From: Candidatus Zambryskiibacteriota bacterium
GTDB lineage: Bacteria > Patescibacteriota > Minisyncoccia > Phycocordibacterales > DATDWN01
Reading direction: 5' to 3'
Length of the DNA stretch: 64,000 nucleotides
Assembly (NCBI GenBank): GCA_003173855.1
Contig: PPGI01000008.1
Coordinates: 10,119-74,118, forward strand
This document shows, piece after piece, positions 28,059 to 61,869 of this stretch (the stretch's first letter is position 1; each line of letters begins with the position of its first letter). Below the pieces are notes generated by a model. The model saw only the letters and a list, made by a program, of their open reading frames with translations, made no database searches and was not told the DNA's origin. Position numbers and translations under genes: made by a program.

Positions 28059-28068
28059 TTTGTATTTG

Positions 28069-28688: not shown

Positions 28689-29132
28689 TTATTTGTCAGA
28701 GAACTCTCGACTGATCTCACGGTCAGTGTCACGCTTTTTGATTGTTTGTCGTTTATCAAATTTTTTCTTTCCGCGAACTGTTGCGAGACCAAGTTTCAGC
28801 TTGCGGCCTTTATTGTACACTGAAATTGGGATGATTGTCAAGCCCTTTGTACCTTCGTTTTTTGACAATTTAGTTAACTCTTCCTTTGTAAGTAATAATC
28901 TTCTGTTTCTATATGGATCGTAGTCAGCTGGAGTGTTATTTACTTGGTATGGTGGCACAAACATGCCTGTAACGTAAGCTTCATTTCCGCGGATAGTTAT
29001 GTAAGCTCCCTCAAGTGACCCTTTGCCAGATTTTAGAGATTTCACTTCAAAACCAAAAAGCTCAATACCAGCAGTATATTTATCTAGGATTTCGTAATTA
29101 AATTGCGTCTTGCGGTTTGTGACTAATGACAT
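28689..29132 (-). CDS. smpB: SsrA-binding protein SmpB
   Basis: 147 aa; SmpB-like (FNYEILDKYTAGIELFGFEVKS...). Confidence 0.92.
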   Translation of the reverse strand: MSLVTNRKTQFNYEILDKYTAGIELFGFEVKSLKSGKGSLEGAYITIRGNEAYVTGMFVPPYQVNNTPADYDPYRNRRLLLTKEELTKLSKNEGTKGLTIIPISVYNKGRKLKLGLATVRGKKKFDKRQTIKKRDTDREISREFSDK

Positions 29133-31758: not shown

Positions 31759-31807
31759 GCAGTGTTCACGCAAAAGGCCGGCAACCCGCCGGCCTTTCCT
31801 ATACATG

Positions 31808-31881
31808 TCCGCCTGCTTGGACTCGAACCAAGGACCCCAGAGGTATAAGCTCTGTGCTCTAACCAACTGAGCTACAGGCGG
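31808..31881 (-). tRNA. tRNA with anticodon UAU (predicted Ile, AUA-reading)
   Basis: Canonical cloverleaf: acceptor CCGCCUG/CAGGCGG; D-arm GCUC-AGUUGGUUA-GAGC; anticodon stem CAGAG/CUCUG with loop CUUAUAC; T-arm CUUGG-UUCGAGU-CCAAG; discriminator A; CCA not encoded. Confidence 0.75.
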
Positions 31882-36756: not shown

Positions 36757-38143
36757 TTAATATTGAGAACTCCACTGTGCGGTTAGATTTCCAATACCAT
36801 TGTCGGCTACAACTTTAATTGAGATTATATCTCCTGCACTAAATGCAACATTGTGTGTTACATCTGAACAAGAACTTGCTCCGCTAGTGATTGTACACGT
36901 TACAGGCTGACTTACGCCATTTTTATCAACAGTGAACACGATATTTTTACCAGAGCCGCCGACATTAGAACTCAATCTCACAAAGAAGTTCTTTATTGTT
37001 CCTGCAACTGGCATTGCTACTTGCTCTGAGCTTTCAGTTGTTGAATTACTTCCAACAAATGTGCCCATGTATGTTGTAGCATTAGCTTGAACGCTTGCAC
37101 CACTGCCTCCACCTATAAATGAGATTCCGTTAGTTCCATTTATACCTGGGTTACCTTGTATTCCTTGGATACCCTGTATACCTTGAGAACCAGTGTCACC
37201 CTTATCTCCCTTTACACCCTGAATACCTTGGATGCCCTGTATTCCTTGATCTCCTTTATCACCCTTTGGACCAATAAGTGATGTTAACCATTGAGTTACA
37301 GTGCCACCAAAACTATTATCAACAGCAACTTGGTAAGCACTTTTTCCATCAACACCAGTGTCTCCTTTGTCTCCTTTATCACCCTTATCACCTTGAATTC
37401 CTTGTATTCCTTGATCTCCTTTGTCTCCTTTTAAGCCTTGTGGACCTTGAGAACCAGTATCACCTTTATCTCCCTTTGGACCTTGTGGACCAGTATCGCC
37501 GGTATCTCCCTTCAAACCTTGTGGGCCTGGTACACCTTGAATACCTTGTTCTCCTTTTTCACCTTGTTGACCAGTTTCTCCTTGGATTCCTTGCTCACCT
37601 TGAGCACCAGTCTCTCCTTTTTCACCCTGAACTCCTTGAATACCCTGATCTCCTTTGTCACCTTTATCTCCCTTTGGACCTTGGATTCCTTGTTGACCTT
37701 GTGGACCAGCAGGACCTATTGGACCTACATCACCTTGAGCACCTATAGGACCAGCAGCTCCCGTATCTCCTTTAGGACCTTGATCTCCGGTATCACCCTT
37801 GTCTCCTTTTTCTCCATTAGTTCCGTTTGTTCCAGGATCCCCCTTTGGACCTTGTGGACCAACTGAACCTTGTATACCTTGTGGACCTTGAGCACCAGTC
37901 TCTCCTTTAGGACCCGCAGGGCCTGTGTCACCAGTATCACCCTTTGGACCGGTTGCTCCATCAGCACCATTTTGACCAGCAGGACCGATTGGACCTTGGA
38001 TTCCTTGAATTCCTTGTGGGCCAGCAGGACCTTGAATATTTCCTACATCTTGGAAGTGAGTTAAATCAGTACATACATATAAATGTCCACCAATTAAATA
38101 TCCATCACCAATATTACATGATGAAGGTAGAAGGGAGTATCAT
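36757..38143 (-). pseudogene. Collagen-like (GxY)n protein, C-terminal segment: ~110 GxY triplets, a phage tail-fibre/BclA-like SAYQVAVDNSFGGTVTQWLTSL motif, and a C-terminal globular domain. The frame is open from 38143 with no ATG; it continues the 38094..38627 ORF after a frameshift
   Basis: In-frame GxY repeats traced by eye from 38041 to ~37100. The ORF-track entry 36757..37515 merely starts at an internal TTG. Confidence 0.6.
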
Positions 38144-38627
38144 CAAATGATCCGAGAATTTTTACACTTGTTCCAGCTTCTCCTTTTTCTCCTTGTGGAC
38201 CTTGTGGACCAGCAGGGCCTTGAGCACCTGTTGCACCAGGAGCACCATCAGCACCAGCCGGACCGGTTGAGCCTGTATCTCCTTTATCTCCTTTTGAACC
38301 TTGTATTCCTTGAGCACCTATTGAACCAGCAGGACCTGTGGCACCAGTATTACCAGTGTCACCCTTGTCTCCTTTTTCTCCTTGTGGACCGATAGGACCG
38401 ATTGGACCTTGTGGGCCGATAGGACCAGGAACTCCTTGAATTCCTTGTGGACCTTGTGGACCTGCAGGACCTTGTGGACCAACTGTTGAACCGACACTAA
38501 TAAAAGTATTTCCTGAACCAGTACACTGTGAGGCAGAACTTACAACCGTCACTTTTCCGTTCGGACTTGAAACACAAAGATTAATTGTTGTAGCAGATGC
38601 ATTTGCAAGTGGAATTAATGCAAACAA
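38094..38627 (-). CDS. Collagen-like protein, N-terminal segment (signal peptide + N-domain + ~40 GxY triplets), ending prematurely after a frame change
   Basis: [12 protein letters not shown] signal-like; [16 protein letters not shown]... repeats. The ORF ends in the non-collagen tail ...[24 protein letters not shown], while the GxY frame resumes downstream in another frame. Confidence 0.6.
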
Positions 38628-38938: not shown

Positions 38939-41113
38939 ATGATAAAAAATTTTCTGAGAATAATGTTTTCAGTAGGATTGTTCGGATTTGCAACGGTCGC
39001 ATTTGCTGGAACTGGAATTGGAACAACAGTTACGCTTCCTTCGACAGTTACAGTAGGTGATACTGGAGTTGCAGCAAGTATTCAGTTTGTTAATACATCG
39101 ACAGCACCAGATAATGTAAATACAATTTCTATTTCAAATATTACGTTGTCTACAACAGCAGGTAACACGGGTGTTTTTTCAATCAGTGCATCAGGTAGTC
39201 AGCATGCAGGTACTTCTTGTGGAGCAGCAAGCTTTACAATTACACCAGGTGCTCCTGGAACATGGACAGTTACACCAAATACTACTCTTCAACCTGTCGG
39301 CATAACTGGAACATGTCAGATTGATTTTACAGTTAATATTCTTTCATACCCTTCTACTGACGATAACGGAGCATTTGCTGGAACACAAGCATTCCTTAAG
39401 GTAAATGGAGATGCAGTTAATACTTTTACTGGGACACCAGGAAATGCTGCAGGAACAGGACAAACAACAGTTAGCAAAGCCTCACCTTCAATTGCAACAG
39501 TTCCATCAGCTGGTGGACCGGTTGGAACAGTATTAAATGATACTGCTACACTTTCTGGAGGAGCATCTCCTACAGGAAATGTGACATTCAAACTTTTTGC
39601 TCCATCTGATGCAAGTTGCTCTGCTTCAGCACTTTACACTGACACTGATGGATCAGCACCTTATGGAACAAGTCCTGGATTTACAAGTCTTGTAGCAGGT
39701 ACATATCATTGGACAGCAGATTATGCTGGAGATGCAAACAATAATGCAACTTCAAGTCCATGTTCAGCAGAAACAGTTACAGTTACAAAACGTTCTTCCT
39801 CTGTTACAACTACAATTCACGATGTTGGACATAATGCAACAACATCTGTTGCAGTCGGAACAGGAGTTCACGATAACGCAGTTGTTTCTGGGTCTGGACC
39901 AACACCAACAGGGACAATCTCATTTAGCATTTACCCAAGCTCAAGTTGTGCAGTCGCTTCAACAAGTTCACAAACTGTTGTATTAGTAGGTGGAGTTGCA
40001 GAAACAGGAACAACAACAGTAACTTCAACAGGTCTAGCTTACAAAGCATTCTATGCGGGTGATTCAAATTACAGTTCTTCAGTAGGAGATTGCGAAACTT
40101 TGCAAGCTGTAAAATTAACTCCAAATGTTTCGACGGATGTTCATAACTCACTTCATCAAATCGTAACAACAGTTCCAGCAGGTTCAATAGTTCACGACAG
40201 TGCAACTGTAACAGGTTCTGGAGGAACTCCTACTGGAACAGTTAATTTTACAGTCTTTCCAAATGGAGTTTGTACAAATGACACAGGAAGTCCAGCAGGT
40301 AGTCACGCATTAAATGGAAGTGGTATTGCTGATGGATCAAATCCAGAAGGGCCATTATCACCTGGATCGTATTCATTCATGGCAAATTACCTTGGTGATG
40401 ATACTTATCTACCTAAAACAGGATCTTGCGAGCCTTTAACTGTTGGCAAACAAAGTCCATCAATTTCGACAACATTATCGACTACAACATCAGTAACTAC
40501 AGGAACAGCAGTTCACGATAGTGCAGCACTTTCTGGTGCAACATCTGATGCTGGTGGAACAGTAACTTATAATGTTTATTCTGGTTCAGTTTGTTCTGGC
40601 TCACCAGTATTTACGAGCGGACCTCATACAGTATCACTCGGAGTTGTTCCAAATTCTAATAATTTCACATCACTTTCTGCCGGAACATACAATTGGCAAG
40701 CTATTTATTCTGGCGACGCAAACAATAACGCTACATCAAGCCCATGTCAGACCGAAATACTAGTTGTTACAGCTCCACCAGCAGGTCAGTGGTGTTCACA
40801 CGGATATTGGAAGCAATCACAACACTTTGATAGCTGGGTAGGATACTTGCCATCACAGTTATTCTCATCAGTATTTGAAAATGCATTTCCAGGAAAAACT
40901 CTACTTCAAGTATTGCAACAAGGTGGCGGAGGATTGAACGCACTTGGTCGTGATACAGTTGGAGAGCTTCTAAACACTGCAGCAGGATTGAATACAGGAT
41001 TTACTACAAGTCAGATAATTGCAAACTTTAGTGCAGTATTCCCAGGCTCAAACAGCCAATACGATACATTGCATGCAACGTTTGTAGCTCCTGAAAACTG
41101 TCCTCTTAACTAA
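38939..41113 (+). CDS. Large secreted protein (724 aa) of ~7 tandem Ig-like/'big' domains, Thr/Ser/Gly-rich
   Basis: Signal peptide; each ~100-aa repeat ends Y-x-(A)-x-Y-x-GD-x-N-x(2-3)-S-x-C-x-(T/E)-x-(T/L)-V; unique C-terminal domain. Confidence 0.65.
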   Translation: MIKNFLRIMFSVGLFGFATVAFAGTGIGTTVTLPSTVTVGDTGVAASIQFVNTSTAPDNVNTISISNITLSTTAGNTGVFSISASGSQHAGTSCGAASFTITPGAPGTWTVTPNTTLQPVGITGTCQIDFTVNILSYPSTDDNGAFAGTQAFLKVNGDAVNTFTGTPGNAAGTGQTTVSKASPSIATVPSAGGPVGTVLNDTATLSGGASPTGNVTFKLFAPSDASCSASALYTDTDGSAPYGTSPGFTSLVAGTYHWTADYAGDANNNATSSPCSAETVTVTKRSSSVTTTIHDVGHNATTSVAVGTGVHDNAVVSGSGPTPTGTISFSIYPSSSCAVASTSSQTVVLVGGVAETGTTTVTSTGLAYKAFYAGDSNYSSSVGDCETLQAVKLTPNVSTDVHNSLHQIVTTVPAGSIVHDSATVTGSGGTPTGTVNFTVFPNGVCTNDTGSPAGSHALNGSGIADGSNPEGPLSPGSYSFMANYLGDDTYLPKTGSCEPLTVGKQSPSISTTLSTTTSVTTGTAVHDSAALSGATSDAGGTVTYNVYSGSVCSGSPVFTSGPHTVSLGVVPNSNNFTSLSAGTYNWQAIYSGDANNNATSSPCQTEILVVTAPPAGQWCSHGYWKQSQHFDSWVGYLPSQLFSSVFENAFPGKTLLQVLQQGGGGLNALGRDTVGELLNTAAGLNTGFTTSQIIANFSAVFPGSNSQYDTLHATFVAPENCPLN

Positions 41114-43585: not shown

Positions 43586-44851
43586 ATGATAAATAAAAAG
43601 ATCGGAATAGCAGTTGTTTTAGGGATTTTATTATTAGTTGGTGCAGGTCAAGTCTTAGCAAAACAAAAGGATGACACGATTCCCGGACAATATATTGTTG
43701 TTCTGAAGGATTCAGTAGCCGATTCAGATGTTGACTCTGTTGTTTCTGATTTGGTCTCAAAACACAATGCAGGGGAGTTATATTCATATCATAAAGCTGT
43801 TAAAGGATTTACGGCAACAATTTCTGATTCTGAAGTAGACAAAATTAAAAAAGATCCGCGAGTGGATTTCGTTAGCGAAGACAGAGTTGTTTCAATTGAT
43901 AAAGTTAATGTCGAAAAAATTGGACAAGTAACTGCCCAATCGGAAACTATTCCAACAGGAGTTTCTCGAGTGGCAGCAACAAATACAGTTAACAAAGGAC
44001 AAGGAGTAAATATTGCTGTAATCGATACCGGAATTTATTCAGCACACCCAGATCTTCAAGGTGCAATTCTAAATAGTGGAACAAGCTGTATTAGAAGAAC
44101 TTCATCTCAAGATGATAATGGTCATGGAACACACGTTTCTGGAACAATAGCAGCACGAAATAACGGCATTGGTGTTGTTGGAGTCGCTCCAAGTGCAAAA
44201 CTTGTGCCTGTAAAAGTTCTTGATCGAAATGGGTCTGGAACATGGTCATCAGTTATTTGCGGAATTGATTGGGTAACAAATCACGCAGCTCAATACAATA
44301 TTAAAGTTGCAAACATGAGTTTGGGTGGAGGTGGTACATCGGATAACAATTGTGGAAATACAAACAACGATGCTCTTCACAAAGCAATCTGCCGTTCACG
44401 AGATGCAGGTGTGACATACGTTGTAGCTGCAGGAAATTCGGCAGCTGATGCTGCAAATTCCGTACCTAGCGCTTATGATGATGCGGTGATTACAGTTTCG
44501 GCACTAGCTGATTCTGATGGTAATGCGGGAGGAGTAGGAGCAGCAACTTCATACGGAAATGATGATACATTTGCTTCGTTTTCTAACTTTGGATCAGTTG
44601 TTGATCTTGGTGCGCCAGGAGTTGATATTCTTTCAACCTGGAAAGGTGGTGGATACGCAATTCTTTCTGGAACTTCAATGGCTACGCCACATGTTACTGG
44701 AGCAGCAGCACTTTATCTTGATGCTCACCCAGGATCTACTTGGACACAAGTTCGAGATGGTTTAATGACTATTGGTGAGGAGAAAGGTTTTGGGCACACA
44801 GATCCTTCAGGTTTGCATCCAGAGATAGTTCTAAATGTAAATAGTTTGTAA
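43586..44851 (+). CDS. Secreted subtilisin-like serine protease (S8) with an I9-like propeptide
   Basis: Catalytic triad motifs AVIDTG, HGTHVSG, GTSMATPHV; signal peptide. Confidence 0.9.
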   Translation: MINKKIGIAVVLGILLLVGAGQVLAKQKDDTIPGQYIVVLKDSVADSDVDSVVSDLVSKHNAGELYSYHKAVKGFTATISDSEVDKIKKDPRVDFVSEDRVVSIDKVNVEKIGQVTAQSETIPTGVSRVAATNTVNKGQGVNIAVIDTGIYSAHPDLQGAILNSGTSCIRRTSSQDDNGHGTHVSGTIAARNNGIGVVGVAPSAKLVPVKVLDRNGSGTWSSVICGIDWVTNHAAQYNIKVANMSLGGGGTSDNNCGNTNNDALHKAICRSRDAGVTYVVAAGNSAADAANSVPSAYDDAVITVSALADSDGNAGGVGAATSYGNDDTFASFSNFGSVVDLGAPGVDILSTWKGGGYAILSGTSMATPHVTGAAALYLDAHPGSTWTQVRDGLMTIGEEKGFGHTDPSGLHPEIVLNVNSL

Positions 44852-44893: not shown

Positions 44894-45823
44894 TTACTGT
44901 GACTGGGTCACAAACGAATTTTGACTTGATGTCGCAGTGTTTCCACTAAAGTCAGTTGATCCAACTACGAAATAATATGTGGTCGACGTTGATAATCCTG
45001 AAAGCAACACTGAATGGTTCGTTACTCCGCCTACAATTGAAGTCATTGTTGCAGTCGAGAAATTTATTGGAGTTGTTGAACTAAACCAAACAGAACTTGT
45101 TGAGTTTTCGTCTGTATTCCATTTAATTGTTGAAGTTGTGACTGTAGTTGAAGCGGAAATGTTTGAAATTATAGGAGCAGTTGTATCAGAGGTTGGAGGT
45201 GTAGTTGTTCCGAACATTGGATGCTTGTTCAGTATTCCTGGAGGAAGTGTTTGACATGGTGGCACAATAGGCATTTCGTTACCTTCATGTTTTAACCATC
45301 CAGGTGCGATTAAGTGTCCAGGAGGAATTTTAGCGCAAAGTCTTTTATGTTCACCATGGTCCTCATCTCTTTCAGTGCTAGTTGCCTCAATATCCAAACC
45401 AAGATTATCTTTTTCTTCGTTCAATTTTCTAAGTGTTTGTGGGCCAACAAAGCCAAGAGCTTCGATGCCGTGCTTCTTCTGGAACTTTTTAACTGCTTCT
45501 GATGTCATTTGTCCAAAAAATCCTGTGATTAGACCTTGAGGATAAACAGTTGGATCTGCTGCAAGAATCGCTTGTAGTGCTTTCACGTCATCACCGCTCA
45601 TTCCTTGGCGCAAACTCCTAATTAGAGACAAAGTTCCAGATATGTTTTGAACAGTAGTTTGAACCTGTTGCTGGGCTGAATGCAGGGCTTCGATCTGCGC
45701 TTGCAGAGTCTGGATTTGAGTTAATAATGCTTGGATTTGAGTACTAGTGCTTGTATCGGCAATAGCCAGTGTTGGTCCAACAACCAACGAAAAAACTACG
45801 AATATTCTTGTTATTGTTTTCAT
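44894..45823 (-). CDS. Secreted protein: coiled-coil, peptidoglycan-binding (PG_binding_1-like) domain, and a C-terminal FN3-like Thr/Ser-rich domain
   Basis: Signal peptide; DDVKALQAILAADPTVYPQGLITGFFGQMTSEAVKKFQ. Confidence 0.55.
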   Translation of the reverse strand: MKTITRIFVVFSLVVGPTLAIADTSTSTQIQALLTQIQTLQAQIEALHSAQQQVQTTVQNISGTLSLIRSLRQGMSGDDVKALQAILAADPTVYPQGLITGFFGQMTSEAVKKFQKKHGIEALGFVGPQTLRKLNEEKDNLGLDIEATSTERDEDHGEHKRLCAKIPPGHLIAPGWLKHEGNEMPIVPPCQTLPPGILNKHPMFGTTTPPTSDTTAPIISNISASTTVTTSTIKWNTDENSTSSVWFSSTTPINFSTATMTSIVGGVTNHSVLLSGLSTSTTYYFVVGSTDFSGNTATSSQNSFVTQSQ

Positions 45824-45933
45824 TTAAAATTGAATTATTAATAATCCTACTTACTAAGACGGTAAATAACCGATCTTAATTACATTTTAGCAATAATAAA
45901 CAAAAAAGCCCGGGAGTTTTCCCGAGCTTTTCA

Positions 45934-46398
45934 CTATCGTATTACACAGAGGGGAGTAGGAGATCCGAGAGCTGTTTCTTGTGATTTAGGAGCACAAACC
46001 ATTATCTGATTACTTGTAGTTGAGGAGATTGTATAACCTGTGTTTGCAGTTGTTCCGCCATCAGGGTCCATTGGAATTCCAGCGGCAATATATGTTGTTG
46101 CAAGGCAGCTGAGGTCAGAAAATGTAGGACCAACAGTTGTTCCGATCGTTGTACTTGCTGAAGAAGCTTTAAAATATACACCATTGCATGTCCAAATCCC
46201 TTTATTATCAGCAATATTCTGGCCAATAGCATTTAGAATTGTATTAATATTGCTTAATCTCTGCGTATTACGAGCTTGAGCAAATTGTCTTGAAGGATTG
46301 ATGGCAATGATAACTATTGTTGCCAAGATTGCGATGATTCCAATAACGACAAGGATTTCGATCAATGTAAAACCACTATTTTGGTTTACTTTTTTCAT
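45934..46398 (-). CDS. Type IV pilin (major pilin candidate)
   Basis: Prepilin N-terminus MKKVNQNSG|FTLIEILVVIGIIAILA with Glu5; C-terminal Cys pair. Confidence 0.85.
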   Translation of the reverse strand: MKKVNQNSGFTLIEILVVIGIIAILATIVIIAINPSRQFAQARNTQRLSNINTILNAIGQNIADNKGIWTCNGVYFKASSASTTIGTTVGPTFSDLSCLATTYIAAGIPMDPDGGTTANTGYTISSTTSNQIMVCAPKSQETALGSPTPLCVIR

Positions 46399-46478
46399 AA
46401 AATTTTTTATTACTAATAACTGTAGTATCAGTGCAAAATATCACAAATAATTTTTCTTGCAAAATAGACAGCTCTCGA

Positions 46479-46877
46479 TTAATAGGTTGCTATTTCTTCC
46501 CAAGAAACGATGCTCAAATCATTTGGGTGAACACTAATTTTAAGATTAGTGTAAAAATTAAAAACATTTGATTGAACATAAAAAATTCTTGGATCTCCTG
46601 AAGATTGAATTGGCCCAAGCTTGCAGGTATTTCCTGAACTAATAGTTATTGTCGTTGTGCTTAAGTTAACTGTGTTATTTGCGATAAGTAAAAGTCCTTC
46701 TCGGGCACAAGCTTCTGCATTTGTCACACTTCGTTCTTTAAATTCTGAATCAAGAATTGCATAACGTTCAAAAAAATTACTGACTGAAAGCGTTACAGCA
46801 ATGAGTAAAAGAATAGCAGAAACCAAAATGACAGATATGAGAGCAATAAAACCTGATTTTTTGTTTTTCTTTTTCAT
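46479..46877 (-). CDS. Minor pilin / pseudopilin-like protein
   Basis: N-terminal KKSGFIALISVILVSAILLLIAV hydrophobic helix; adjacent to other pilins. Confidence 0.6.
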   Translation of the reverse strand: MKKKNKKSGFIALISVILVSAILLLIAVTLSVSNFFERYAILDSEFKERSVTNAEACAREGLLLIANNTVNLSTTTITISSGNTCKLGPIQSSGDPRIFYVQSNVFNFYTNLKISVHPNDLSIVSWEEIATY

Positions 46878-47345
46878 TTAGTTGCGCATATATCTCGTCA
46901 CAGTAATTACATTGCCATTTACAGTAACGTTCGCAGTAATTCCAGCAGGGGAAGCAGAGCTTATGAAATTGAGGCAAGAGACAGTTACATTTGCCGTTGA
47001 AATTGGATAATATGAAACGCCATCATCTTCGATTTCTATATAATTTATTCCGCTAACTTGATGCAATCGAACACTGACTGGGTTAGGCAAGTCCGTTCGA
47101 TAAGTTGTTAAATTTTGGTTACAAGCAGTTCCGGAAATGACTGGAGAAGTAACTGGATCAAGACTGCTTAAACTCCAAGCAATTTTGTGCAAAATAAAAT
47201 TTCCTTCTTCTTCTGTGCGCAATTTTGAATCCAAATTATCTCCACTTTTAATTATTTGGAAAGCAGCAGTAAATCCGCTCGTTAATAAGATAGTAAAAAG
47301 TGCAATATAAACGATCATTTCGATTAATGTGAATCCTCTGTTCAT
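46878..47345 (-). CDS. Minor type IV pilin
   Basis: MNRG|FTLIEMIVYIALFTIL prepilin motif. Confidence 0.8.
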   Translation of the reverse strand: MNRGFTLIEMIVYIALFTILLTSGFTAAFQIIKSGDNLDSKLRTEEEGNFILHKIAWSLSSLDPVTSPVISGTACNQNLTTYRTDLPNPVSVRLHQVSGINYIEIEDDGVSYYPISTANVTVSCLNFISSASPAGITANVTVNGNVITVTRYMRN

Positions 47346-47346
47346 A

Positions 47347-48822
47347 TTATGGACTATAAATTATTTGAAGATTTGGAGTTGATTGGCCAGTCGAATAAAT
47401 AAAATCTGGATCATAATCAATTCCACGATTAACAACATTACCGAAATTGTAAGTTTGGACAACACTAATGTTTGTAGGATCGGAAATATCCAAAATTTGA
47501 AATTCCTTTGTCACTTTTGGTGTAGCGATGAAAGCAAATCTGCCAGCAACGCGGATTGCCTGGACTCCCGTACCAACATCTTTTGACCCAAGAAGCGTTA
47601 ATCCGGCTGACGGATTCGAAATATCATAAACATACAATTCAGATCCTCCTGGAGTAGATTGTCGACCAAAATATAATTTATTTCCTGAAGCAAACACACT
47701 TAAACCATTTTGAATTCCAGGCAAATCTTGATTTGCTGCAGTCACTTCTAATATGCTCAATGGGTTTGTGACATCAAAAACGCGCAATTCTTTATCATCC
47801 TCGTCGGTAGCCATGTAAGCGTAGCGTTTTATAACGCCATTGATTAATTGATCTTGGATAACCATGTCATTTACAGAGTCGCCAAGATCTAATCCTTTAC
47901 ATCCCACACTGCCAATTGAATATTCAGTTGGATTAGCTGGGTTTGAAACATCAAAAATATGAAATTCCGGGCCTGCGGTAAATAGAGTAGTTAGGTAAAG
48001 AGTGTTTTTATAAAAATAAACCAGATTTCCTTGTGGTTCTGAACCAGTAACACAAGCAGATAATCCGCGAAATACTGCTGTCGGTTTTAAAATATTTGTA
48101 ACATCGATTGATGCAAGTTGCTGCGTTGATGAATTAATGGCAGCAAATGCATAATTTTTATTTAAAGACGGATATCGAACTGCGTCAATTGAATTTATTT
48201 CGTGTCCAGCATCAAAACCATTTGTAAAACTCACTAACAAACCAGAATTTTGCCCCAGAAATGCACCATCTGTGTCAGCTATTGCCAGGAATGGAGATTT
48301 ATCAACTCCCAAATAAACAATTTTATTTAATTCATCTAGTGCAAGTGGCTTGCCAGGACTTGTTGTATCTGATGCAAATCGAGTAGGATTATTCCAGTTC
48401 GATGTTGGTGGGTCAGTTATGCAATCTCCGCCAAGAGCAAGAGCAGTTTGACCATCAACTAAGTAAGTATTGAATTCAATTTTTTGCGGACGAAGTGGGC
48501 CTAGTGACCAAGTTGTTGTAACTTTCGCTTGTTTTTTACATTGTGTTAAATCAGAAACTGAGAGAGTTTTTAAATAGGTGATTGGTCCGGAAATTTCCTG
48601 AGTAGTACTAGATTCGACAGACAGGAAATTTTGTTTTGCTAAAGCAAATGTGCCCTCAAGAACCTTTTCCGTTTTGTACATTGCCTCATGGTTTGTTTGC
48701 GTGTCGACCGAAACTGATTGATTGCTAAAAATTATTAAAATGACTGCAGAAAGTGTCATAATAAGCACAGTAAAAGCAATCAAGATCTCAATTGTGCTGC
48801 TGCCTCCGTTAAATTTGTTTTT
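47347..48822 (-). CDS. Large pilin-like protein: prepilin-type N-terminal helix fused to an LVIVD-repeat beta-propeller (tip adhesin candidate). The ORF track extends it to 48879, overlapping the upstream gene
   Basis: GGSSTIEILIAFTVL N-terminus; repeated (F/L)D(V/I)(S/T)NP and LVIVD-like motifs (FDVSNPANP, FDVTNPLSI, YDISNPSAG, LDISDPTNI). Confidence 0.6.
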   Translation of the reverse strand, partial: KNKFNGGSSTIEILIAFTVLIMTLSAVILIIFSNQSVSVDTQTNHEAMYKTEKVLEGTFALAKQNFLSVESSTTQEISGPITYLKTLSVSDLTQCKKQAKVTTTWSLGPLRPQKIEFNTYLVDGQTALALGGDCITDPPTSNWNNPTRFASDTTSPGKPLALDELNKIVYLGVDKSPFLAIADTDGAFLGQNSGLLVSFTNGFDAGHEINSIDAVRYPSLNKNYAFAAINSSTQQLASIDVTNILKPTAVFRGLSACVTGSEPQGNLVYFYKNTLYLTTLFTAGPEFHIFDVSNPANPTEYSIGSVGCKGLDLGDSVNDMVIQDQLINGVIKRYAYMATDEDDKELRVFDVTNPLSILEVTAANQDLPGIQNGLSVFASGNKLYFGRQSTPGGSELYVYDISNPSAGLTLLGSKDVGTGVQAIRVAGRFAFIATPKVTKEFQILDISDPTNISVVQTYNFGNVVNRGIDYDPDFIYSTGQSTPNLQIIYSP

Positions 48823-48826
48823 CATA

Positions 48827-49375
48827 TTACCAGTCAATTTGACCTGCATGGTTAAGAGAAATAAGTGACGTTCTGCCATCTTTAGTTATCGCAATTTGCA
48901 CTGTTTGAGTATCTCCAGAAAGTTGCAGAAAAACTACTCCTCCAAGGGAGCACGGAAAAATATTTGGTGTGGAACTTACTGTGACACCCGCATTGCCAGC
49001 AATCTGCTCGTTATTTGGACTGGGACTGTAAGTTAAACCTCGAAACAACACATAGGTTGGGCTTTTTGGATTTGAATTGTCGTAACAGAGCCCACTGGGA
49101 GACTGGAAATAATTATTCATCGATCTTTCGCGTGCACGGCTCAAAGCGCTGACAAGAATTGATCTTTCCGATCTAAAAATTGTTCGTTTGTAGGAATCAG
49201 TCGTCACTAAAATGCCAAAACTCATGATAAGAAATACGATTCCGATAGTAATCATTGTTTCAAGCAAAGTAAACCCGGACACCAAATTTGGCATTTTTGA
49301 ATCTTTGTTGCGAATACGCAACGATGCCAAACTTGGTGTACGGGTAAACCCAGAATTGTTTTTTCTTAAACTCAT
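48827..49375 (-). CDS. Minor type IV pilin with an unusually long leader, or starting at the internal ATG at 49294
   Basis: MPNLVSG|FTLLETMITIGIVFLI prepilin motif at residue 28 of the ORF. Confidence 0.7.
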   Translation of the reverse strand: MSLRKNNSGFTRTPSLASLRIRNKDSKMPNLVSGFTLLETMITIGIVFLIMSFGILVTTDSYKRTIFRSERSILVSALSRARERSMNNYFQSPSGLCYDNSNPKSPTYVLFRGLTYSPSPNNEQIAGNAGVTVSSTPNIFPCSLGGVVFLQLSGDTQTVQIAITKDGRTSLISLNHAGQIDW

Positions 49376-50478
49376 TATTTTGGAGTCAAATGCTGAGTAA
49401 TGCTGTAAATTGGAGTAATAATTGATATTGCAATAAATCCAACAAGCAATCCCATAAAAATCATCAGTGCCGGTTCAATAGTATTTCCTAAATTTTTTGT
49501 AAAATCTTCAATTTCAGCTTCATAAAGTTCAGAGAGATATGCGAGTGAATTAGAAAGATTTCCGCTTCTCTCACCAACATTAATTATGTGAACCATCATA
49601 TCAGGGAAGAGACCAATTTGAGATTTAAGGTAAGTAGACATTCTTTCACCGTTAGAAACAATGATCGAAGCATTTTTTAATTCCTTTTTATAAACTAAAT
49701 TTGTATGAGTTTTTTCAGCAATTGGTAGAGCATCGCTGATAGTTACTCCGCTTTTTAATAATAAACTTAATGTTCGAGTTATATTTGTTAGATTGTAGTC
49801 GCGAATAATCTGACCTATCAGGGGAATTTTTAAAATTAATTTATCAAAATAATAGTGAACATTTTTATTTTTCTTTATTGTAACAACAATAGCTAATAAA
49901 AATATAATTAGAGCGGCGAGCAGAATAAAAATATATTTCTTTAAAAAATTGCTTATCGACATAACAATAAGAGTTGATAGAGGCAATTGGGCGTGGATGC
50001 TTTCAAAAATAGGCGTGATCTTTGGAAACAAATAAAGCATTAAAAATGCCGTGATGGCGAGTGTTGCCGCAATAACGATCGAGGGATAAATAAATGCTCC
50101 AATGATTTTTTTCTTAAGTGCTTGTTTTTTCTTTAATTCCTCTGCAAGATATTCCAAGTTTTCAGAAAGTATTCCTGTTGTTTCTCCAAAGCCGATAATA
50201 TTTATTGAAAAATCTCCAAATACTCTTCTGTACTTTAATAAGCTTGTAGCCAAAAATTGTCCATTGGAAACATCGTAAATGACAGAATCAAGAATTTTCC
50301 TGTGATTTTTCTTTTTAGTTTGTTCGCGGATTAAATGCAAGCTCTCCAACACTGGAACGCCGGCTTTAATAAGAAATGATAGACGTTTTATGAGAAAAAT
50401 TTGCTCACGAAGCGGCATTTTTCTCACAGACAAATCTTTTAGAGATGAAAGCTTTGATTTTTTCTTTTCCTCCGACAT
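49375..50478 (-). CDS. pilC: Type IV pilus inner-membrane platform protein PilC (GspF family)
   Basis: 367 aa; two T2SS_F repeats; 3 transmembrane segments. Confidence 0.88.
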   Translation of the reverse strand: MSEEKKKSKLSSLKDLSVRKMPLREQIFLIKRLSFLIKAGVPVLESLHLIREQTKKKNHRKILDSVIYDVSNGQFLATSLLKYRRVFGDFSINIIGFGETTGILSENLEYLAEELKKKQALKKKIIGAFIYPSIVIAATLAITAFLMLYLFPKITPIFESIHAQLPLSTLIVMSISNFLKKYIFILLAALIIFLLAIVVTIKKNKNVHYYFDKLILKIPLIGQIIRDYNLTNITRTLSLLLKSGVTISDALPIAEKTHTNLVYKKELKNASIIVSNGERMSTYLKSQIGLFPDMMVHIINVGERSGNLSNSLAYLSELYEAEIEDFTKNLGNTIEPALMIFMGLLVGFIAISIITPIYSITQHLTPK

Positions 50479-50479
50479 T

Positions 50480-51703
50480 TTATTCGTTAATTACTCGGAG
50501 AACTTCTTCGAGAGTTGTTTGTCCGGACAAAGCTTTGCCTAAGCCATCTTCAAGCATCGTGGTCATTCCTTGTTTCGTTGCCAAGTTTTTTATTTCAGCG
50601 GCTGATGCTTTGCGTAAGATGGCTTCACGTATCACATCATTTGCTACAAGCACTTCGTTAATGCAAATTCTTCCTGAGTATCCGCTTTTGTTGCACTTAT
50701 CACAGCCCTTTCCTTTGTATAAAGTTTCGTCATTATATTTTTTCCCAAGCTGATAAAGAGTTTCTTTCATCGATTTTGTAATTTCGATTTTTTCTTTGCA
50801 GTGAGTGCAAATTTTTCGAACTAGTCTTTGGCCAATTGCAATTGAAACAGTCGAAGCGACTAAATATTCTTCTATGCCCATATCGAGCAAACGGGGAAGA
50901 GTTGTAGCGGCATCATTTGTGTGCAAAGTTGAGAGCAAAAGATGGCCTGTTAGAGCGGTATTTACGGCAATGCCTGCTGTTTCAGAGTCGCGAATTTCAC
51001 CAACCATAATAATATTTGGATCTTGTCGCAGAATTGAACGCAAGCCATTGGCAAATGACAGTCCAGTTTTGGCATTCACTTGGATTTGCTCGATATCAGA
51101 AACTGCATATTCGATAGGATCTTCGATAGTAATAATGGAAACTTCAGGAGAATTAAGCATCTTGATCAAAGTGTAAAGCGTAGTTGTCTTTCCAGAGCCA
51201 GTCGGACCTGTTGCAAGAATCATTCCGCTTGATTTTTTCATTGCTTCTAGAATTTTTTTGCGATCATTTTCTGAAAAACCGAGCATCTCGAGCGTATATT
51301 GTTCCGCTTTGTCAGACAAAAGCCTCAAAACTGCATTTTCACCATGGTAAGTTGGCACAATTGAAACACGAAGATCAACAAATGTTTTTCCATCTGGAAA
51401 AGTATGTCGGAATCTTCCATCTTGAGTAGCTTGATGCTCGTCCGTTCGAAGTTTTGAGAGAACTTTTATGCGAGAAATTATTTCGTTATGAATTGTTTTT
51501 GGAAAAGAAAATGCTTCTTGGAGTACTCCATCGATTCTAAATCGAACTCGAATGTCGTCTAGTCTTGGATCAATGTGAATGTCAGAAACATGAGTCTCGT
51601 GTGCTTTCTCAACTAAATAGTCAACCAGATTGATTATTGAAACATCTTTACCACGTGTAATTTCTTTTTCTAATTTGTCCCATTTTTCCTTAGTAGTTGT
51701 CAT
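50480..51703 (-). CDS. Type IV pilus assembly ATPase, short GspE/PilB family with a tetracysteine motif
   Basis: Walker A GPTGSGKTT, Asp box, His box; CxxC...CxxC. Confidence 0.85.
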   Translation of the reverse strand: MTTTKEKWDKLEKEITRGKDVSIINLVDYLVEKAHETHVSDIHIDPRLDDIRVRFRIDGVLQEAFSFPKTIHNEIISRIKVLSKLRTDEHQATQDGRFRHTFPDGKTFVDLRVSIVPTYHGENAVLRLLSDKAEQYTLEMLGFSENDRKKILEAMKKSSGMILATGPTGSGKTTTLYTLIKMLNSPEVSIITIEDPIEYAVSDIEQIQVNAKTGLSFANGLRSILRQDPNIIMVGEIRDSETAGIAVNTALTGHLLLSTLHTNDAATTLPRLLDMGIEEYLVASTVSIAIGQRLVRKICTHCKEKIEITKSMKETLYQLGKKYNDETLYKGKGCDKCNKSGYSGRICINEVLVANDVIREAILRKASAAEIKNLATKQGMTTMLEDGLGKALSGQTTLEEVLRVINE

Positions 51704-56568: not shown

Positions 56569-57693
56569 ATGCCACCTTTTCTTTCCAATCTGTTCAAAAA
56601 AAGAGCCAAAAGCGTAATTGGAGTAGATATTGGCTCTTCCTCTATAAAAATTGTTCAACTGACTAAAAAAAGCGGTCATCCCGTACTCGAAACATACGGG
56701 GAACTTTCGCTTGGCCCTTATGCTGGTAAAGAAGTCGGGGAAGCGACTAATTTGCCAATTGAAAAAATTATTGCGGCGGTAACCGATATGCTTCGGGAGA
56801 AAGAAGTCAATATTACAACTAGAGTTGCAGGTCTTTCGATCCCATTTGCATCAAGCTTAATGGCTGTAATTGAATTGCCGGCATTGTCAGCTAAAGAAAT
56901 TTCCGATATGGTGCCGATCGAATCAAGAAAATATATTCCCGTTCCAATTTCAGAAGTGACACTGGATTGGTATCCGATTCCAAAAGATAAGTCTCCTGAT
57001 TCAGAAGCTGTGCCGATTCCTGACCCAAACTTTCCTCCGCCTGCGCCAAAACAGGAAGTGCTGATAGTTGCTTTGCACAATGATACGATCAATCAGTACA
57101 AAGATATTGTTACAAAAAGCGGACTGGAAGCTAGCTTTTTTGAAATCGAAATTTTCAGCACTATGCGATCAATTCTTGATCAAGATGTAACGCCAGTGCT
57201 TTTGATCGACATGGGAGCAACATCAACCAAGCTTTACATAGTTGAGCGGGCCATCCTGCGTAGTTCGCATATGATCAATCGCGGTTCGCAGAAAATTACA
57301 GACGAACTTTCTAAATCACTCGGCATTTCCATAACTGATGCAGAATATTTGAAACGAGAAAAAGGATTGATGGGTGAAATAAACGGAATTCCTGTACGAA
57401 ATGTAATGACAATCACATTAAATTATATTTTCTCGGAAGCCAACCAAGTTTTGCTTGCATATCAGAAAAAATACAACAAAAACGTTTCGAAAGTGCTTTT
57501 GGTTGGCGGCGGTAGTGCGCTAAAGGGAATAGTTGACGTTGCAAAGTCTATTTTTAATGTAGAAGTTCTTGCGGGAGACCCATTTGGTAAGGTTGTTGCA
57601 CCGGCTTTTTTAGAAAAAGTTCTGCGCGATACTGGACCTGAATTTGCTGTAGCAGTAGGCGTCGCCTTAAGAGTATTACAGGAGAAGGGATAG
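56569..57693 (+). CDS. pilM: Type IV pilus assembly protein PilM (actin-like ATPase fold)
   Basis: SVIGVDIGSSSIKIVQL N-terminus; FtsA/PilM-like. Confidence 0.8.
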   Translation: MPPFLSNLFKKRAKSVIGVDIGSSSIKIVQLTKKSGHPVLETYGELSLGPYAGKEVGEATNLPIEKIIAAVTDMLREKEVNITTRVAGLSIPFASSLMAVIELPALSAKEISDMVPIESRKYIPVPISEVTLDWYPIPKDKSPDSEAVPIPDPNFPPPAPKQEVLIVALHNDTINQYKDIVTKSGLEASFFEIEIFSTMRSILDQDVTPVLLIDMGATSTKLYIVERAILRSSHMINRGSQKITDELSKSLGISITDAEYLKREKGLMGEINGIPVRNVMTITLNYIFSEANQVLLAYQKKYNKNVSKVLLVGGGSALKGIVDVAKSIFNVEVLAGDPFGKVVAPAFLEKVLRDTGPEFAVAVGVALRVLQEKG

Positions 57694-57799
57694 AACTTCG
57701 AAAACTTGCGCATTTCGTTGTTGCAGTTCAATTTTGCTGTTCACCTTACTACAAGTAAGGCTCACTCACAAAATTTCCTGCGCCTAGAACTGCATCCAG
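57694..57799 (+). repeat. Structured intergenic element, copy M4: central hairpin ccttac-tacaa-gtaagg inside nested long-range helices
   Basis: Outer perfect 12-bp inverted repeat acttcgaaaact / agttttcgaagt (57695-57706 with 57787-57798). Inner tgcagttc/gaactgca and gcgca/tgcgc pairings. Central hairpin 57744..57760 matches the M1-M3 family. Confidence 0.55.
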
Positions 57800-57837
57800 T
57801 TTTCGAAGTTCGAGATTGTTATGTTTGACGGAATTTT

Positions 57838-58098
57838 TTGGAATGGTACTATCAAGTCCGGAGGCATTCTATGGAGACCAATGAAATTAAGACTCCAGTA
57901 CCAGAGGAAACAATCTGGGAAGCCACAGATCTCTGCGAAATTGGTGGGCGACAACAGGAGCCGTCAGTGAAAAAAGAAGTTACCGATTATGATGAAACCC
58001 CTCCCTCAAGATGGGTTGGGATCGTTCTCGGAACGACTATCATTTCTTTTATCGTCTTAGGCACACGCTACGCATTTTTTAAAGGTTGGATCAGCTGA
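57838..58098 (+). CDS. Hypothetical 86-aa protein with a C-terminal transmembrane segment
   Basis: ORF followed by the terminator at 58113..58141; TGA stop. Confidence 0.35.
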   Translation: MEWYYQVRRHSMETNEIKTPVPEETIWEATDLCEIGGRQQEPSVKKEVTDYDETPPSRWVGIVLGTTIISFIVLGTRYAFFKGWIS

Positions 58099-58202
58099 CT
58101 GACTCTGCAAGAAAAAGGCCAATTTCTTGCGGGGTCTTTTTCTTTATTTTTTCCCCAACTTGCGCTGTTTTTTTAAATATAGCTGTAATATAATTAAATG
58201 GA

Positions 58203-58808
58203 ATGGAACCCAAATTCAATACATCGTTCATTCCTAAAAAACCGATTGTCGAAACTCCAGCAGTATCTGGAAAGCGTTCCGGATCTTTCAATATTCTCTC
58301 TGCTCTATCCACCCTTATTTTTATTGTTACAATCCTAGCCGCAGGAGGGCTTTTTGTATATAAAAATGTTTTAAACGGACAAATTGCTAAAGCTGAACAA
58401 GAGGTAAATGATGCAAGAGAAGCATTTCAAACTCAAAAAATCCAAGATTTACTTGATGCCAATGCCCGTATTGTTGCCACGAAAAATCTAATGAATAGCC
58501 ACGTTGCTGTTTCAGAGCTTGTGGCATTACTGCAAAATTTAACACTAAAAACTGTTAAATATACGAAACTGACATACAACAGTGAAAAAGGTGCGCCAAC
58601 CTTAAACATTGATGCCGAAGCTCGAAGTTATAATGCTCTAGCTGATCTATCTGATCAATTTTTGAAAAATGATTTTGTAAAAGGTCAAATTTTTTCTAAT
58701 TTCAATTTAGTAGACAATGGAAATGTCAAAGTAAATATTTTTGCCACACTTGACCCAAGCCTAACGTCGTATAAAAGAGCTTTGGATGTAAAAGGAGCCA
58801 CACAATAA
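58203..58808 (+). CDS. pilN: PilN-like bitopic pilus assembly protein
   Basis: Single transmembrane segment after ~35 aa, then coiled-coil and periplasmic domain; follows pilM. Confidence 0.5.
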   Translation: MEPKFNTSFIPKKPIVETPAVSGKRSGSFNILSALSTLIFIVTILAAGGLFVYKNVLNGQIAKAEQEVNDAREAFQTQKIQDLLDANARIVATKNLMNSHVAVSELVALLQNLTLKTVKYTKLTYNSEKGAPTLNIDAEARSYNALADLSDQFLKNDFVKGQIFSNFNLVDNGNVKVNIFATLDPSLTSYKRALDVKGATQ

Positions 58809-58809
58809 C

Positions 58810-59379
58810 ATGAAATCATTTCTTCCATTCGCCATGATTGCAATCTGTGTAGGTAGCTACTATATGTATATTTCACCTATGTGGTCTGATGTCGATAGTT
58901 TGATTGCCAAAAAGGCTGAATACGAAAATGTTCTTCTCAAAACGAAGGAAATTGCCCAAGAACGTGATGCGGCAATTGCTTCCTACAACAGCATTCCCCA
59001 AGAGGACCTGGATAAACTCAATAAGATTGTTCCAGAAACTTTTAATGAAGCTTTTGTAGCAAACACAATTAGTTCGCTTGCTGCAAAATATGGCATGTCT
59101 CTTTCTGAATTTAGTGCGAATCTACCTGTAACACAAGAAAGAACAGACGAAAATAGCACTGATACAACTAATGATAATAAATTGTACAAAACTGAAACTA
59201 TAAAATTAAAGCTGAAGGGACAATTTGGCCAATTTACAAATTTCCTAAATGATCTTGAGTCCAGCTTGCATCTAATGGACATCAAAAACATTGTAATTTC
59301 AGCAAATTCCGGTGGAAAAAATCCTAGTGATTTAAATATGGAATATGATTTAGATATAAATACATATTCTTTGAAATAA
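58810..59379 (+). CDS. pilO: PilO-like bitopic pilus assembly protein
   Basis: N-terminal transmembrane segment, coiled-coil, C-terminal domain; gene order pilM-N-O. Confidence 0.5.
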   Translation: MKSFLPFAMIAICVGSYYMYISPMWSDVDSLIAKKAEYENVLLKTKEIAQERDAAIASYNSIPQEDLDKLNKIVPETFNEAFVANTISSLAAKYGMSLSEFSANLPVTQERTDENSTDTTNDNKLYKTETIKLKLKGQFGQFTNFLNDLESSLHLMDIKNIVISANSGGKNPSDLNMEYDLDINTYSLK

Positions 59380-59380
59380 T

Positions 59381-59731
59381 ATGTCAAATTCATCTAAAAT
59401 TTTAATCGGAGTTCTCTTAATCGCAATCATTGGCGCCGCAGCATACTATTTCTTTTCTGGAAGCAATCAGTCAGATGCAAGTTCTACTCAAAGTGAAGTG
59501 GTTGGACAAGATATTTTGGTATTGGCGGAAAAATTGCAAACGCTTTCAATCGATCAAAGTGTTTTTACCGGCGCTGTCTTCGAGAGTCTAAGTGATCGCG
59601 ATGCGATTATCCAACCAGAAGCACAAGGAAGATTCAATCCATTTTCTAATATTGGTTCTGAGGCAGTTGGAGTTATTCCTCGACTGCCATACAAAACTTC
59701 AGCAAACGCTACGAGCACAACAACTCCGTAA
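59381..59731 (+). CDS. Small membrane-anchored protein (PilP-like position), hypothetical
   Basis: N-terminal transmembrane segment; Ser/Thr-rich tail. Confidence 0.35.
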   Translation: MSNSSKILIGVLLIAIIGAAAYYFFSGSNQSDASSTQSEVVGQDILVLAEKLQTLSIDQSVFTGAVFESLSDRDAIIQPEAQGRFNPFSNIGSEAVGVIPRLPYKTSANATSTTTP

Positions 59732-59742
59732 GCTAAAATAAT

Positions 59743-61470: not shown

Positions 61471-61482
61471 TTTTAAATTAAT

Positions 61483-61869
61483 ATGACTGATAATCCACTG
61501 AAAATACTTTTGATTGATGATGACCGATTTCTTCTTGATATGTATTCGTTAAAATTTAAGAAATCAAATCTTGATGTCGACACTTCTTCTACAGCTCAGG
61601 CAGCACTTGGTAAAATTAAAGATGATGACAAATACGATATAATTCTTCTTGATATCATTATGCCTGGAATGGATGGCTTAGAGTTTCTAAAAAATTTAAG
61701 AGAACAAAAATTGGCAATGAAAGCTACAATTATAATGCTTACAAACCAAGCAGATGATTTTGAAAAAGCCAAAGCTTTTGATGTTGATGGCTATATTATA
61801 AAAGCAACGACAATTCCATCCGAAGTTGTTGAGCAAGTTCTTGCAATTTACAAAAATAAAAAAAGATAA
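61483..61869 (+). CDS. Stand-alone response-regulator receiver domain (CheY/PilH-like)
   Basis: DD...D phospho-acceptor pocket (LLIDDD, ILLDIIMPGMDG), K near the C-terminus. Confidence 0.8.
   Translation: MTDNPLKILLIDDDRFLLDMYSLKFKKSNLDVDTSSTAQAALGKIKDDDKYDIILLDIIMPGMDGLEFLKNLREQKLAMKATIIMLTNQADDFEKAKAFDVDGYIIKATTIPSEVVEQVLAIYKNKKR

Follow-up and report, generated by a model that had tools for sequence, protein, structure and literature searches.

We describe here a type IV pilus operon encoded in a 64,000-nucleotide stretch of DNA from Candidatus Zambryskiibacteriota bacterium (contig PPGI01000008.1, positions 10,119 to 74,118 of the forward strand; the whole stretch is called the window below) and, within this operon, a gene for a putative minor pilin whose predicted pilin stem is fused to a beta-propeller of LVIVD repeats, referred to as the propeller pilin. 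The minus strand from 51703 to 45934 carries seven open reading frames (ORFs), lying where a preliminary description of this DNA had placed them, in the order short PilB, PilC, p182, propeller pilin, p155, p132 and p154. That description had announced a short ATPase, PilC, four prepilin-like genes and a major-pilin candidate, and all of these were confirmed by the ORFs together with Pfam or fold evidence. Neighbouring frames are separated by at most one base, the 182-residue ORF as annotated begins in overlap with the stop codon of PilC, and the only wider gap, of 80 nucleotides, precedes the p154 gene. Because the frames abut or overlap in this way and are followed by a terminator-like hairpin, the seven ORFs form one tight operon and a single transcription unit, the 3' end of which is marked by the hairpin. 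A promoter scan was uninformative, with 24 sites found against 21 expected. The features of the operon are as follows.

50480–51703, minus strand: short PilB/GspE-type assembly ATPase, 407 residues (Pfam T2SSE, E = 2.1e-122, residues 20–403)
49375–50478, minus strand: PilC/GspF-type inner-membrane platform protein, 367 residues (Pfam T2SSF, E = 2.7e-48, in two stretches)
48827–49375, minus strand: minor pilin p182, 182-residue ORF in the first, 'H-like' position (weak N_methyl match, E = 0.023; canonical cleavage site); its real start may be 49294
48385–48825, minus strand: pilin module of the propeller pilin, residues 1–147 (Met = 1), with leader MKNKFNGG, cleavage site G↓SSTIE (the arrow marks the cleavage site here and below), helix, sheet and a Cys-bridged linker, ALGGDC
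47347–48384, minus strand: seven-bladed LVIVD propeller head of the propeller pilin, residues 148–492 plus stop codon, with a strand-C motif in each blade
46878–47345, minus strand: minor pilin p155, 155 residues, in the third, 'J-like' position (Pfam N_methyl, E = 5.1e-7; MNRG↓FTLIE)
46479–46877, minus strand: K-type cap minor pilin candidate p132, 132 residues (site KKSG↓FIALIS; no Glu5)
45934–46398, minus strand: major-pilin candidate p154, 154 residues (N_methyl, E = 8.4e-8; site NQNSG↓FTLIE)
45903–45932, minus strand: terminator-like hairpin (13-bp stem with 6 GC pairs, then a T-run), 2 bases past the p154 stop codon

The large gene in the middle of the operon had been reported at 47347–48822 with 490 residues. 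The gene is indeed there, and its boundary moves by one codon: it spans 47347–48825 and encodes 492 residues, with the ATG at 48825–48823 separated by a single base from an upstream TAA at 48829–48827. Homologs align from the Met at 48825, and a longer, 510-residue frame starting at 48879 was hence dismissed as an over-extension. As had been suspected from its repeats, the protein matches the LVIVD family (PF08309) with an E-value of 2.3e-14 and 52.9 bits, above the gathering cutoff of 20.2, and the same hidden Markov model (HMM) matches 27 of 30 homologs. Each blade carries a strand-C motif of the type h-x-[IV]-x-D-[IV]-[ST]-[ND]-P, and the four strings singled out in the preliminary description (FDVSNPANP, FDVTNPLSI, YVYDISNPSAG and LDISDPTNI) are all present, one each in blades 3–6. 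The Choice-of-anchor B model (TIGR04312) did not match the 492-residue protein (19.9 bits against a cutoff of 100). The Glu with which strand C begins (E286 and E345, with H288) was weighed as a possible active or metal site and rejected as such, given that it recurs in the repeat of blades 3–6.

At the N-terminus the protein has the hallmarks of a class III signal peptide, with an 8-residue leader followed by Glu at +5 (MKNKFNGG↓SSTIE). Among 111 homologs, Gly at -1 is found in 104 of 108 and Glu at +5 in 107 of 108, while Lys or Arg occupies -2 in 68 of 111; the +1 residue is variable (Ser in 41, Phe in 20, Gln in 15). The cleavage motif, the loss of which in orthologs would have spoken against a prepilin, is thus conserved. 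The N_methyl HMM, which had been proposed as a check on the pilins, gave a divided result: it finds the ORFs at 45934–46398 and 46878–47345 and, weakly, the one at 48827–49375, and does not match the propeller pilin. The prepilin call for the 492-residue protein therefore draws on two other lines of evidence, namely conservation of the motif G↓xS(T)(L/I)E and the structure prediction.

This structure was predicted with AlphaFold2 from a 111-sequence alignment (residue numbers of the model omit the Met). The whole chain is modelled with a mean predicted local distance difference test (pLDDT) score of 94.7 and a predicted template modelling (pTM) score of 0.89. The stem adopts the lollipop fold of pilins, consisting of an alpha-1 helix of 55 residues (10–64) and four strands between residues 72 and 122, with pLDDT values of 88–97. 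The head contains 25 strands of at least three residues over residues 147–489, besides shorter bridges, and these group into seven blades of a closed propeller in which each third strand is LVIVD-like; the strand 147–153 probably closes blade 7 in the model. The propeller fold on which the preliminary description depended is thus predicted with high confidence. Stem and head appear to be firmly coupled. Cys95 of the sheet and Cys134 of the short linker (motif GGDC) are conserved together in 97 of the 111 homologs, a pairing that recalls the disulfide pinning the C-terminal region of classical pilins, and W105 and W143 are nearly invariant, suggesting a rigid stem-head junction. Foldseek against the PDB returned only generic WD40 and DDB1 propellers, and a PDB search with the family profile detected no solved relative, the best match being a non-significant one between the alpha-1 helix and a Geobacter pilin (E = 0.09). 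Collectively, the motif and the model make it well supported that the 492-residue protein is a modular minor type IV pilin, that is, a predicted pilin stem fused to an LVIVD propeller, and we regard this architecture together with membership in the operon as highly probable.

A protein with an N-terminal hydrophobic helix could also sit in the membrane without ever entering a filament, either as a surface protein on an uncleaved helix or as a displayed propeller enzyme such as a lyase or hydrolase, and merely be co-transcribed with the pilins. The lack of a Pfam N_methyl match and the non-canonical +1 residue would agree with such a protein. However, an ordinary membrane anchor has no reason to retain Gly-1 and Glu+5, which are near-invariant here, and the complete pilin fold, with alpha-1 helix, sheet and Cys bridge, is predicted with high confidence. 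Moreover, the gene always lies between pilin genes, behind PilB and PilC, and no catalytic family was matched in Pfam and NCBIfam scans of the 492-residue protein or in a Pfam scan of 30 homologs. We consider a protein outside the filament to be highly improbable.

The propeller pilin belongs to a large family. A word-indexed search identified 233 full-length homologs of 470–520 residues, the named ones among them from Minisyncoccia, Zambryskibacteria and Brennerbacteria. With the 146-residue pilin module alone as the query, an exhaustive HMMER search returned 598 clusters at 50% identity at E ≤ 1e-3 and 282 at E ≤ 1e-10. With 233 full-length homologs and 282 clusters, the propeller pilin is more than a product of chance. 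Nearly all matches to the pilin module are 470–530 residues long, which argues that stem and propeller are a fixed pair and not a stem with swappable heads. A few longer family members retain LVIVD and add C-terminal Big_3_5 or MBG_3 domains. In the 612-residue protein P0280, a GIY-YIG nuclease domain lies in-frame immediately upstream of the propeller pilin. Scanning species-representative genomes with a profile built from an alignment of 11 closer sequences yielded 31 loci, which belong to Minisyncoccia, Giovannoni-, Zambryski-, Taylor-, Vogel-, Yanofsky- and Doudnabacteria and Paceibacterota. We then compared the seven proteins of the operon with 37 loci by tblastn. Operon order and strand are kept in 35 of the 37, with PilB and PilC upstream. 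The N_methyl signature is precomputed for only 2 of 120 family members. As this signature is undetectable in most of them, the majority would have escaped the InterPro-based survey of modular pilins published in 2021. A literature search on LVIVD with pilins, pili or Patescibacteria returned nothing specific beyond the architecture table of that survey and no paper describing the family.

We next consider what kind of filament the operon may build. The T2SSE domain of the ATPase already spans residues 20–403 of 407, leaving no N-terminal MshEN or GSPII_E_N domain, in contrast to the 575-residue PilB of a second pilus cluster in the window, which has MshEN. The CxxC...CxxC zinc motif of assembly ATPases can be read from the translation, and across related loci the operon ATPase shows 45–77% identity. 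In NCBIfam the ATPase scores 497 bits with GspE, 470 with PilB and 259 with ComGA, and the platform protein scores 281 bits with GspF, all under the curated cutoffs. The Com models fare worst: ComGA reaches 258.7 bits against a cutoff of 300 and ComGB 144.4 against 240, and both are outscored by the GspE/GspF and PilB/PilC models, which nevertheless also stay below their cutoffs. As none of the GspE/F, PilB/C and ComGA/GB models reaches its cutoff, the filament subtype cannot be named.

One reading of this composition is a competence-type filament for DNA uptake, a Com-like pilus in which the propeller would serve as a tip DNA receptor, supplying DNA or nucleotides to a cell unable to make these. 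The operon does have the minimal make-up of a Com system, with a short ATPase lacking the N-terminal domain, a platform and five pilins; neither PilM/N/O nor PilT was found in or beside it in the window or in the related loci L001–L006, and RecO lies just upstream in L003 and L004. Against this, practically all homologs have an acidic propeller (median isoelectric point 4.7, net charge -11, range -27 to 0), which is unfavourable for a general DNA binder and, notwithstanding the minimal Com-like make-up of the operon and a match to YncE, tells weakly against a DNA receptor. In addition, the ComGA and ComGB models fall both below their own cutoffs and below the competing models, and the pilus of the saccharibacterium TM7x that carries a propeller pilin made no contribution to competence (PMC11623550). 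A filament for DNA uptake thus appears decidedly unlikely to us.

The small pilins of the operon differ in how readily they can be classified. The leader and cleavage site of p182 (MPNLVSG↓FTLLE) begin at Met28, and the ORF gives weak NCBIfam matches to ComGE (2.9e-4) and GspH (8e-4). It has a 27-residue N-terminal extension with a degenerate second leader-like string, KNNSGFT. Since p182 homologs in the same operon position of related loci are 150–171 residues long, translation probably starts at the internal Met at 49294. The p155 protein, which is syntenic in most loci, weakly matches ComGF, ComGE and GspJ in NCBIfam. We attempted to name p182, the propeller pilin and p155 as H, I and J through NCBIfam and rejected these names, as the matches are dominated by the helix and lie far below cutoffs. 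The p154 protein is weakly GspG-like, with further HMM matches to TIGR02532 (2.6e-7) and GspG (2.8e-6), and is the most conserved of the small pilins, at 42–82% identity across related loci.

The remaining small protein, p132, had been listed among the prepilins in the preliminary description; this needs correction in that it has no Pfam N_methyl match and lacks Glu5. It nonetheless has a pilin fold in the AlphaFold2 model (pLDDT 86.5), with a helix at residues 7–66 and a five-stranded sheet, and the model is structurally closest to GspK and to PilA of Streptococcus sanguinis. All 22 detectable p132 homologs carry the motif G↓(F/Y)(I/V/A)AL(I/M)S, lack Glu at +5 and share two invariant cysteines. 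In HIJK complexes the K subunit that lacks Glu5 is the tip cap, and in S. sanguinis PilA, which is without Glu5, seeds a tip complex in which the modular pilins PilB and PilC expose their bulky modules (PMC9934059). By analogy, we infer that p132 would cap the filament and that the propeller pilin would be part of the tip complex beneath or beside p132.

Some relatives of p132 are considerably more elaborate. At locus L006 (10051–14562, plus strand) a p132 homolog with 32% identity (E = 7e-21) forms the N-terminus of a 1503-residue protein, in which an extension of about 1370 residues contains three SpaA_2 prealbumin-like stretches, making it a giant modular K-type pilin. The SpaA_2 domains on this homolog suggest that adhesin-type modules have been grafted onto more than one tip subunit in the lineage. 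At L001 (8122–8820) and L002 (8000–8728), GIY-YIG nuclease domains lie in-frame immediately upstream of the p132 homolog. The GIY-YIG domains beside pilin genes could be small mobile GIY-YIG genes inserted between them, or could reflect mis-called starts.

Taking these elements together, we favour the reading that the propeller pilin is located at the filament tip and acts there as the ligand-binding effector of the pilus, which is the best explanation overall and one that we hold to be moderately probable. By analogy with HIJK and the S. sanguinis PilABC proteins, the four minor pilins would come together on PilC, the platform, as a priming complex with the GspK-like 132-residue pilin, which lacks Glu5, as its cap. 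The short PilB would then polymerise the 154-residue major pilin below this complex, and the propeller would thereby end at the filament tip. Its target there would be some conserved component on the surface of a partner cell or substrate, by analogy with PilY1, a propeller adhesin of diderm T4aP that is not itself a pilin, and with PilX2 of TM7x. The bulk of the propeller, which could not be accommodated in the filament body, points to the tip as well. The tip position was already part of the preliminary description; it is carried here by inference from the bulky rigid head, the HIJK-like set and the adjacent GspK-like cap without Glu5, and by this analogy we regard it as likely. The preliminary description had also suggested that the propeller is an adhesin and could be the host-contact module of the pilus, which is plausible; for such a ligand-binding or adhesin role we see the case as evenly balanced. 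The modular pilins PilB and PilC of S. sanguinis, which are adhesins (PMC8179133, PMC9934059), and the reduced host binding of TM7x after deletion of pilX2 (PMC11623550) speak for it. Relatives append Ig-like (Big_3_5), MBG (MBG_3) or SpaA-type modules onto the same pilins, and these appended modules favour an exposed adhesive role of the propeller pilin.

Several observations weigh against the favoured reading. In most family members the +1 position holds Ser, Gln, Ala or Val and not Phe or Met; PF07963 (N_methyl) and TIGR02532 do not match the 492-residue protein at E ≤ 0.1; and of 30 homologs only 7 match N_methyl at E ≤ 1, with a best E-value of 5e-4. A scan for a prepilin peptidase (Peptidase_A24), which covered ORFs of the window, detected none. 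The putative H/I/J assignment of the remaining minor pilins follows from gene order and weak HMM matches only. Furthermore, propeller and stem are conserved to the same degree, and within the propeller the top-face loops, bottom-face loops and strands are conserved alike, with top and bottom loops assigned from general propeller topology and not from model coordinates. Such uniform conservation is more in keeping with a conserved ligand or a structural role than with a host-specific adhesin undergoing rapid diversification.

A purely structural head is indeed conceivable. The propeller might act as a bulky cap or plug, nucleating and stabilising the tip complex or serving as a gate at the cell-wall passage, and have no external ligand; PilY1, too, primes assembly besides mediating adhesion (summarised in PMC8179133 and PMC9934059). 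In line with such a role, conservation is uniform over all propeller faces and equal to that of the stem, the protein is nearly invariably present at a fixed operon position, and the coupling of stem and head appears rigid, given the Cys95-Cys134 pair, the nearly invariant W105 and W143 and the pTM over the whole chain. On the other hand, PilX2 of TM7x is dispensable for filament extrusion and needed for binding, related proteins append adhesin-type Ig-like, MBG and SpaA modules, and a 38-kDa propeller would be a costly cap for a genome-reduced organism. We consider a head with only this function to be unlikely; structural and ligand-binding roles are not mutually exclusive.

A further proposal extends the favoured reading of a ligand-binding tip pilin beyond this one organism. 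The seven-gene operon may represent a distinct minimal class of type IV filaments, with a short ATPase, no dedicated PilM/N/O or PilT, and an HIJK-like set whose bulk is placed on a Glu5-containing subunit with a rigidly joined LVIVD propeller instead of on K. That this class occurs across the Parcubacteria as a general host-recognition organ, with the propeller binding one conserved ligand, is a tentative idea that we regard as possible and rather doubtful. If true, it would place a host-recognition organ also in lineages that parasitise methanogenic archaea, and would mean that a PilY1-like tip adhesin has been reinvented as a pilin fusion.

Patescibacteria of the Parcubacteria type are ultra-small bacteria that form a very large and almost wholly uncultivated group, and to our knowledge how they find and hold their hosts is essentially unknown. 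With a family of at least 282 clusters at 50% identity, a fixed place in the operon, a very confident structure model and predicted exposure at the tip, the propeller pilin is a concrete candidate that can be cloned, screened for ligands and labelled with antibodies or nanobodies in the small number of co-cultures that exist. The family also illustrates that signature-based surveys of modular pilins miss whole families with a degenerate N_methyl motif. The current picture of type IV filaments is left unchanged by the propeller pilin.

The window contains a second type IV pilus cluster.

56569–62933, plus strand: second type IV pilus cluster, separate from the LVIVD operon, comprising the following six genes
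56569–57693, plus strand: PilM
58203–58808, plus strand: possible PilN (no Pfam match)
58810–59379, plus strand: PilO-like protein
59743–61470, plus strand: long PilB with MshEN domain, 575 residues
61483–61869, plus strand: response regulator
61869–62933, plus strand: PilT-like ATPase

With this cluster beside the LVIVD operon, the organism has two pilus systems, as does TM7x. Directly downstream of the pilin-operon terminator, a gene on the minus strand (44894–45823) encodes a 309-residue protein with PG_binding_1 and an FN3-like Pur_ac_phosph_N domain; homologs occur in the same place in L001, L002, L007, L011 and L015, and the protein may be a cell-wall-associated partner of the pilus. Just beyond the operon, on the opposite strand (43586–44851, plus), lies a gene for a secreted subtilase with Peptidase_S8 and an Inhibitor_I9 propeptide. 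Two minus-strand ORFs (36757–37515 and 38094–38627) contain collagen triple-helix repeats (E about 1e-18) and fall within the most GC-rich stretch of the window (0.44 at 36–38 kb); adjoining them is a plus-strand gene (38939–41113) for a 724-residue protein with three Big_3_5 Ig-like domains. A tRNA-Ile gene on the minus strand (31807–31881) has the unusual anticodon TAT; in most bacteria AUA is read by a lysidine-modified CAU tRNA. Finally, the window encodes a surface protein with PG_binding_1 and CARDB domains, and a tmRNA gene (tag ending in FSYALA) that adjoins smpB.

26951–28006 (plus strand), 28068–28441 (minus strand) and 28689–29132 (minus strand): group of PG_binding_1/CARDB surface protein, tmRNA and smpB

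When set against known systems, the novelty implied by the preliminary description proves overstated: the combination of N_methyl and LVIVD is already contained in Dataset S1 of the 2021 survey (PMC8179133), and a propeller minor pilin for host binding has been reported from Saccharibacteria (PMC11623550). Raynaud et al. (2021) described more than 1,200 modular pilins in 264 architectures, many from candidate-phyla bacteria, and drew attention to a Falkowbacteria protein of 860 residues in which IPR013211, the LVIVD repeat, occurs 12 times; their Dataset S1 lists about 30 proteins in which IPR012902 is followed by 1–13 copies of IPR013211 as "motif of unknown function" (PMC8179133). Modular pilins share with the propeller pilin a small pilin module, a class III signal peptide, Glu5, a bulky C-terminal module and a predicted tip location, and the 492-residue protein conforms to the definition of Raynaud et al., though the IPR012902 signature is undetected in it. 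In S. sanguinis, PilB carries a vWA module and PilC a lectin module, and both of these modular pilins are adhesins (PMC8179133; Shahin et al. 2023, PMC9934059). The system described here differs from theirs in that the head is a seven-bladed LVIVD propeller, the linker looks rigid and Cys-bridged where a flexible loop is found in S. sanguinis, and there are four minor pilins and not three.

A further counterpart comes from Patescibacteria. PilX2 of TM7x (Nanosynbacter lyticus, Saccharibacteria) is a minor pilin with a C-terminal heptabladed propeller of the RCC1 type, and deletion of pilX2 roughly halves host binding while filaments are still extruded (PMC11623550). Both proteins carry a seven-bladed propeller on a pilin stem, and PilX2 is likewise the largest minor pilin of a second, accessory type IV pilus system, in an organism that has, like this window, a separate PilM/N/O-PilB-PilT system. 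They are set apart by the published description of the PilX2 propeller as RCC1 repeats, whereas no RCC1 appears among the Pfam matches of the 492-residue protein or 30 homologs; by the signal peptide, since PilX2 is reported without a predicted PilD signal peptide while the LVIVD family has conserved Gly-1 and Glu+5; and by gene arrangement, the TM7x pilin locus being separate from PilB2/PilC2 where everything lies in one operon here.

The tip adhesin PilY1/PilC of Pseudomonas, Neisseria and Myxococcus is a tip propeller presented via a core minor-pilin complex (PMC8179133, PMC9934059), as we propose for the propeller pilin, but it is a non-pilin that docks onto minor pilins, whereas the propeller here is covalently part of a pilin. 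The PilY1 family (IPR008707) had no match in the 492-residue protein or 30 homologs at the thresholds used. The HIJK sets (GspH/I/J/K; FimU/PilV/PilW/PilX; ComGD-GG) resemble the present locus in that four minor pilin genes lie in the machinery operon, with a shared presumed role as a tip-located assembly primer, and here as there one of the four is a K-type subunit that lacks Glu5 and would form the cap. In contrast to HIJK, however, the Glu5-less subunit is the smallest, without an alpha-domain insertion, and not the bulkiest, and the bulk resides on a Glu5-containing subunit in the second position. With LVIVD (PF08309) surface proteins and the seven-bladed propellers YncE and Lp49, the head shares only 10–11% identity; the likeness score to YncE and Lp49 is indistinguishable from that of generic WD40 propellers, and those proteins have no pilin stem. 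The LVIVD family thus sets itself apart by its propeller type, its conserved Gly-1/Glu+5, its fixed seven-gene operon and its Parcubacteria-type range. The propeller-on-pilin design is already known, and the propeller pilin is an uncharacterised example of it.

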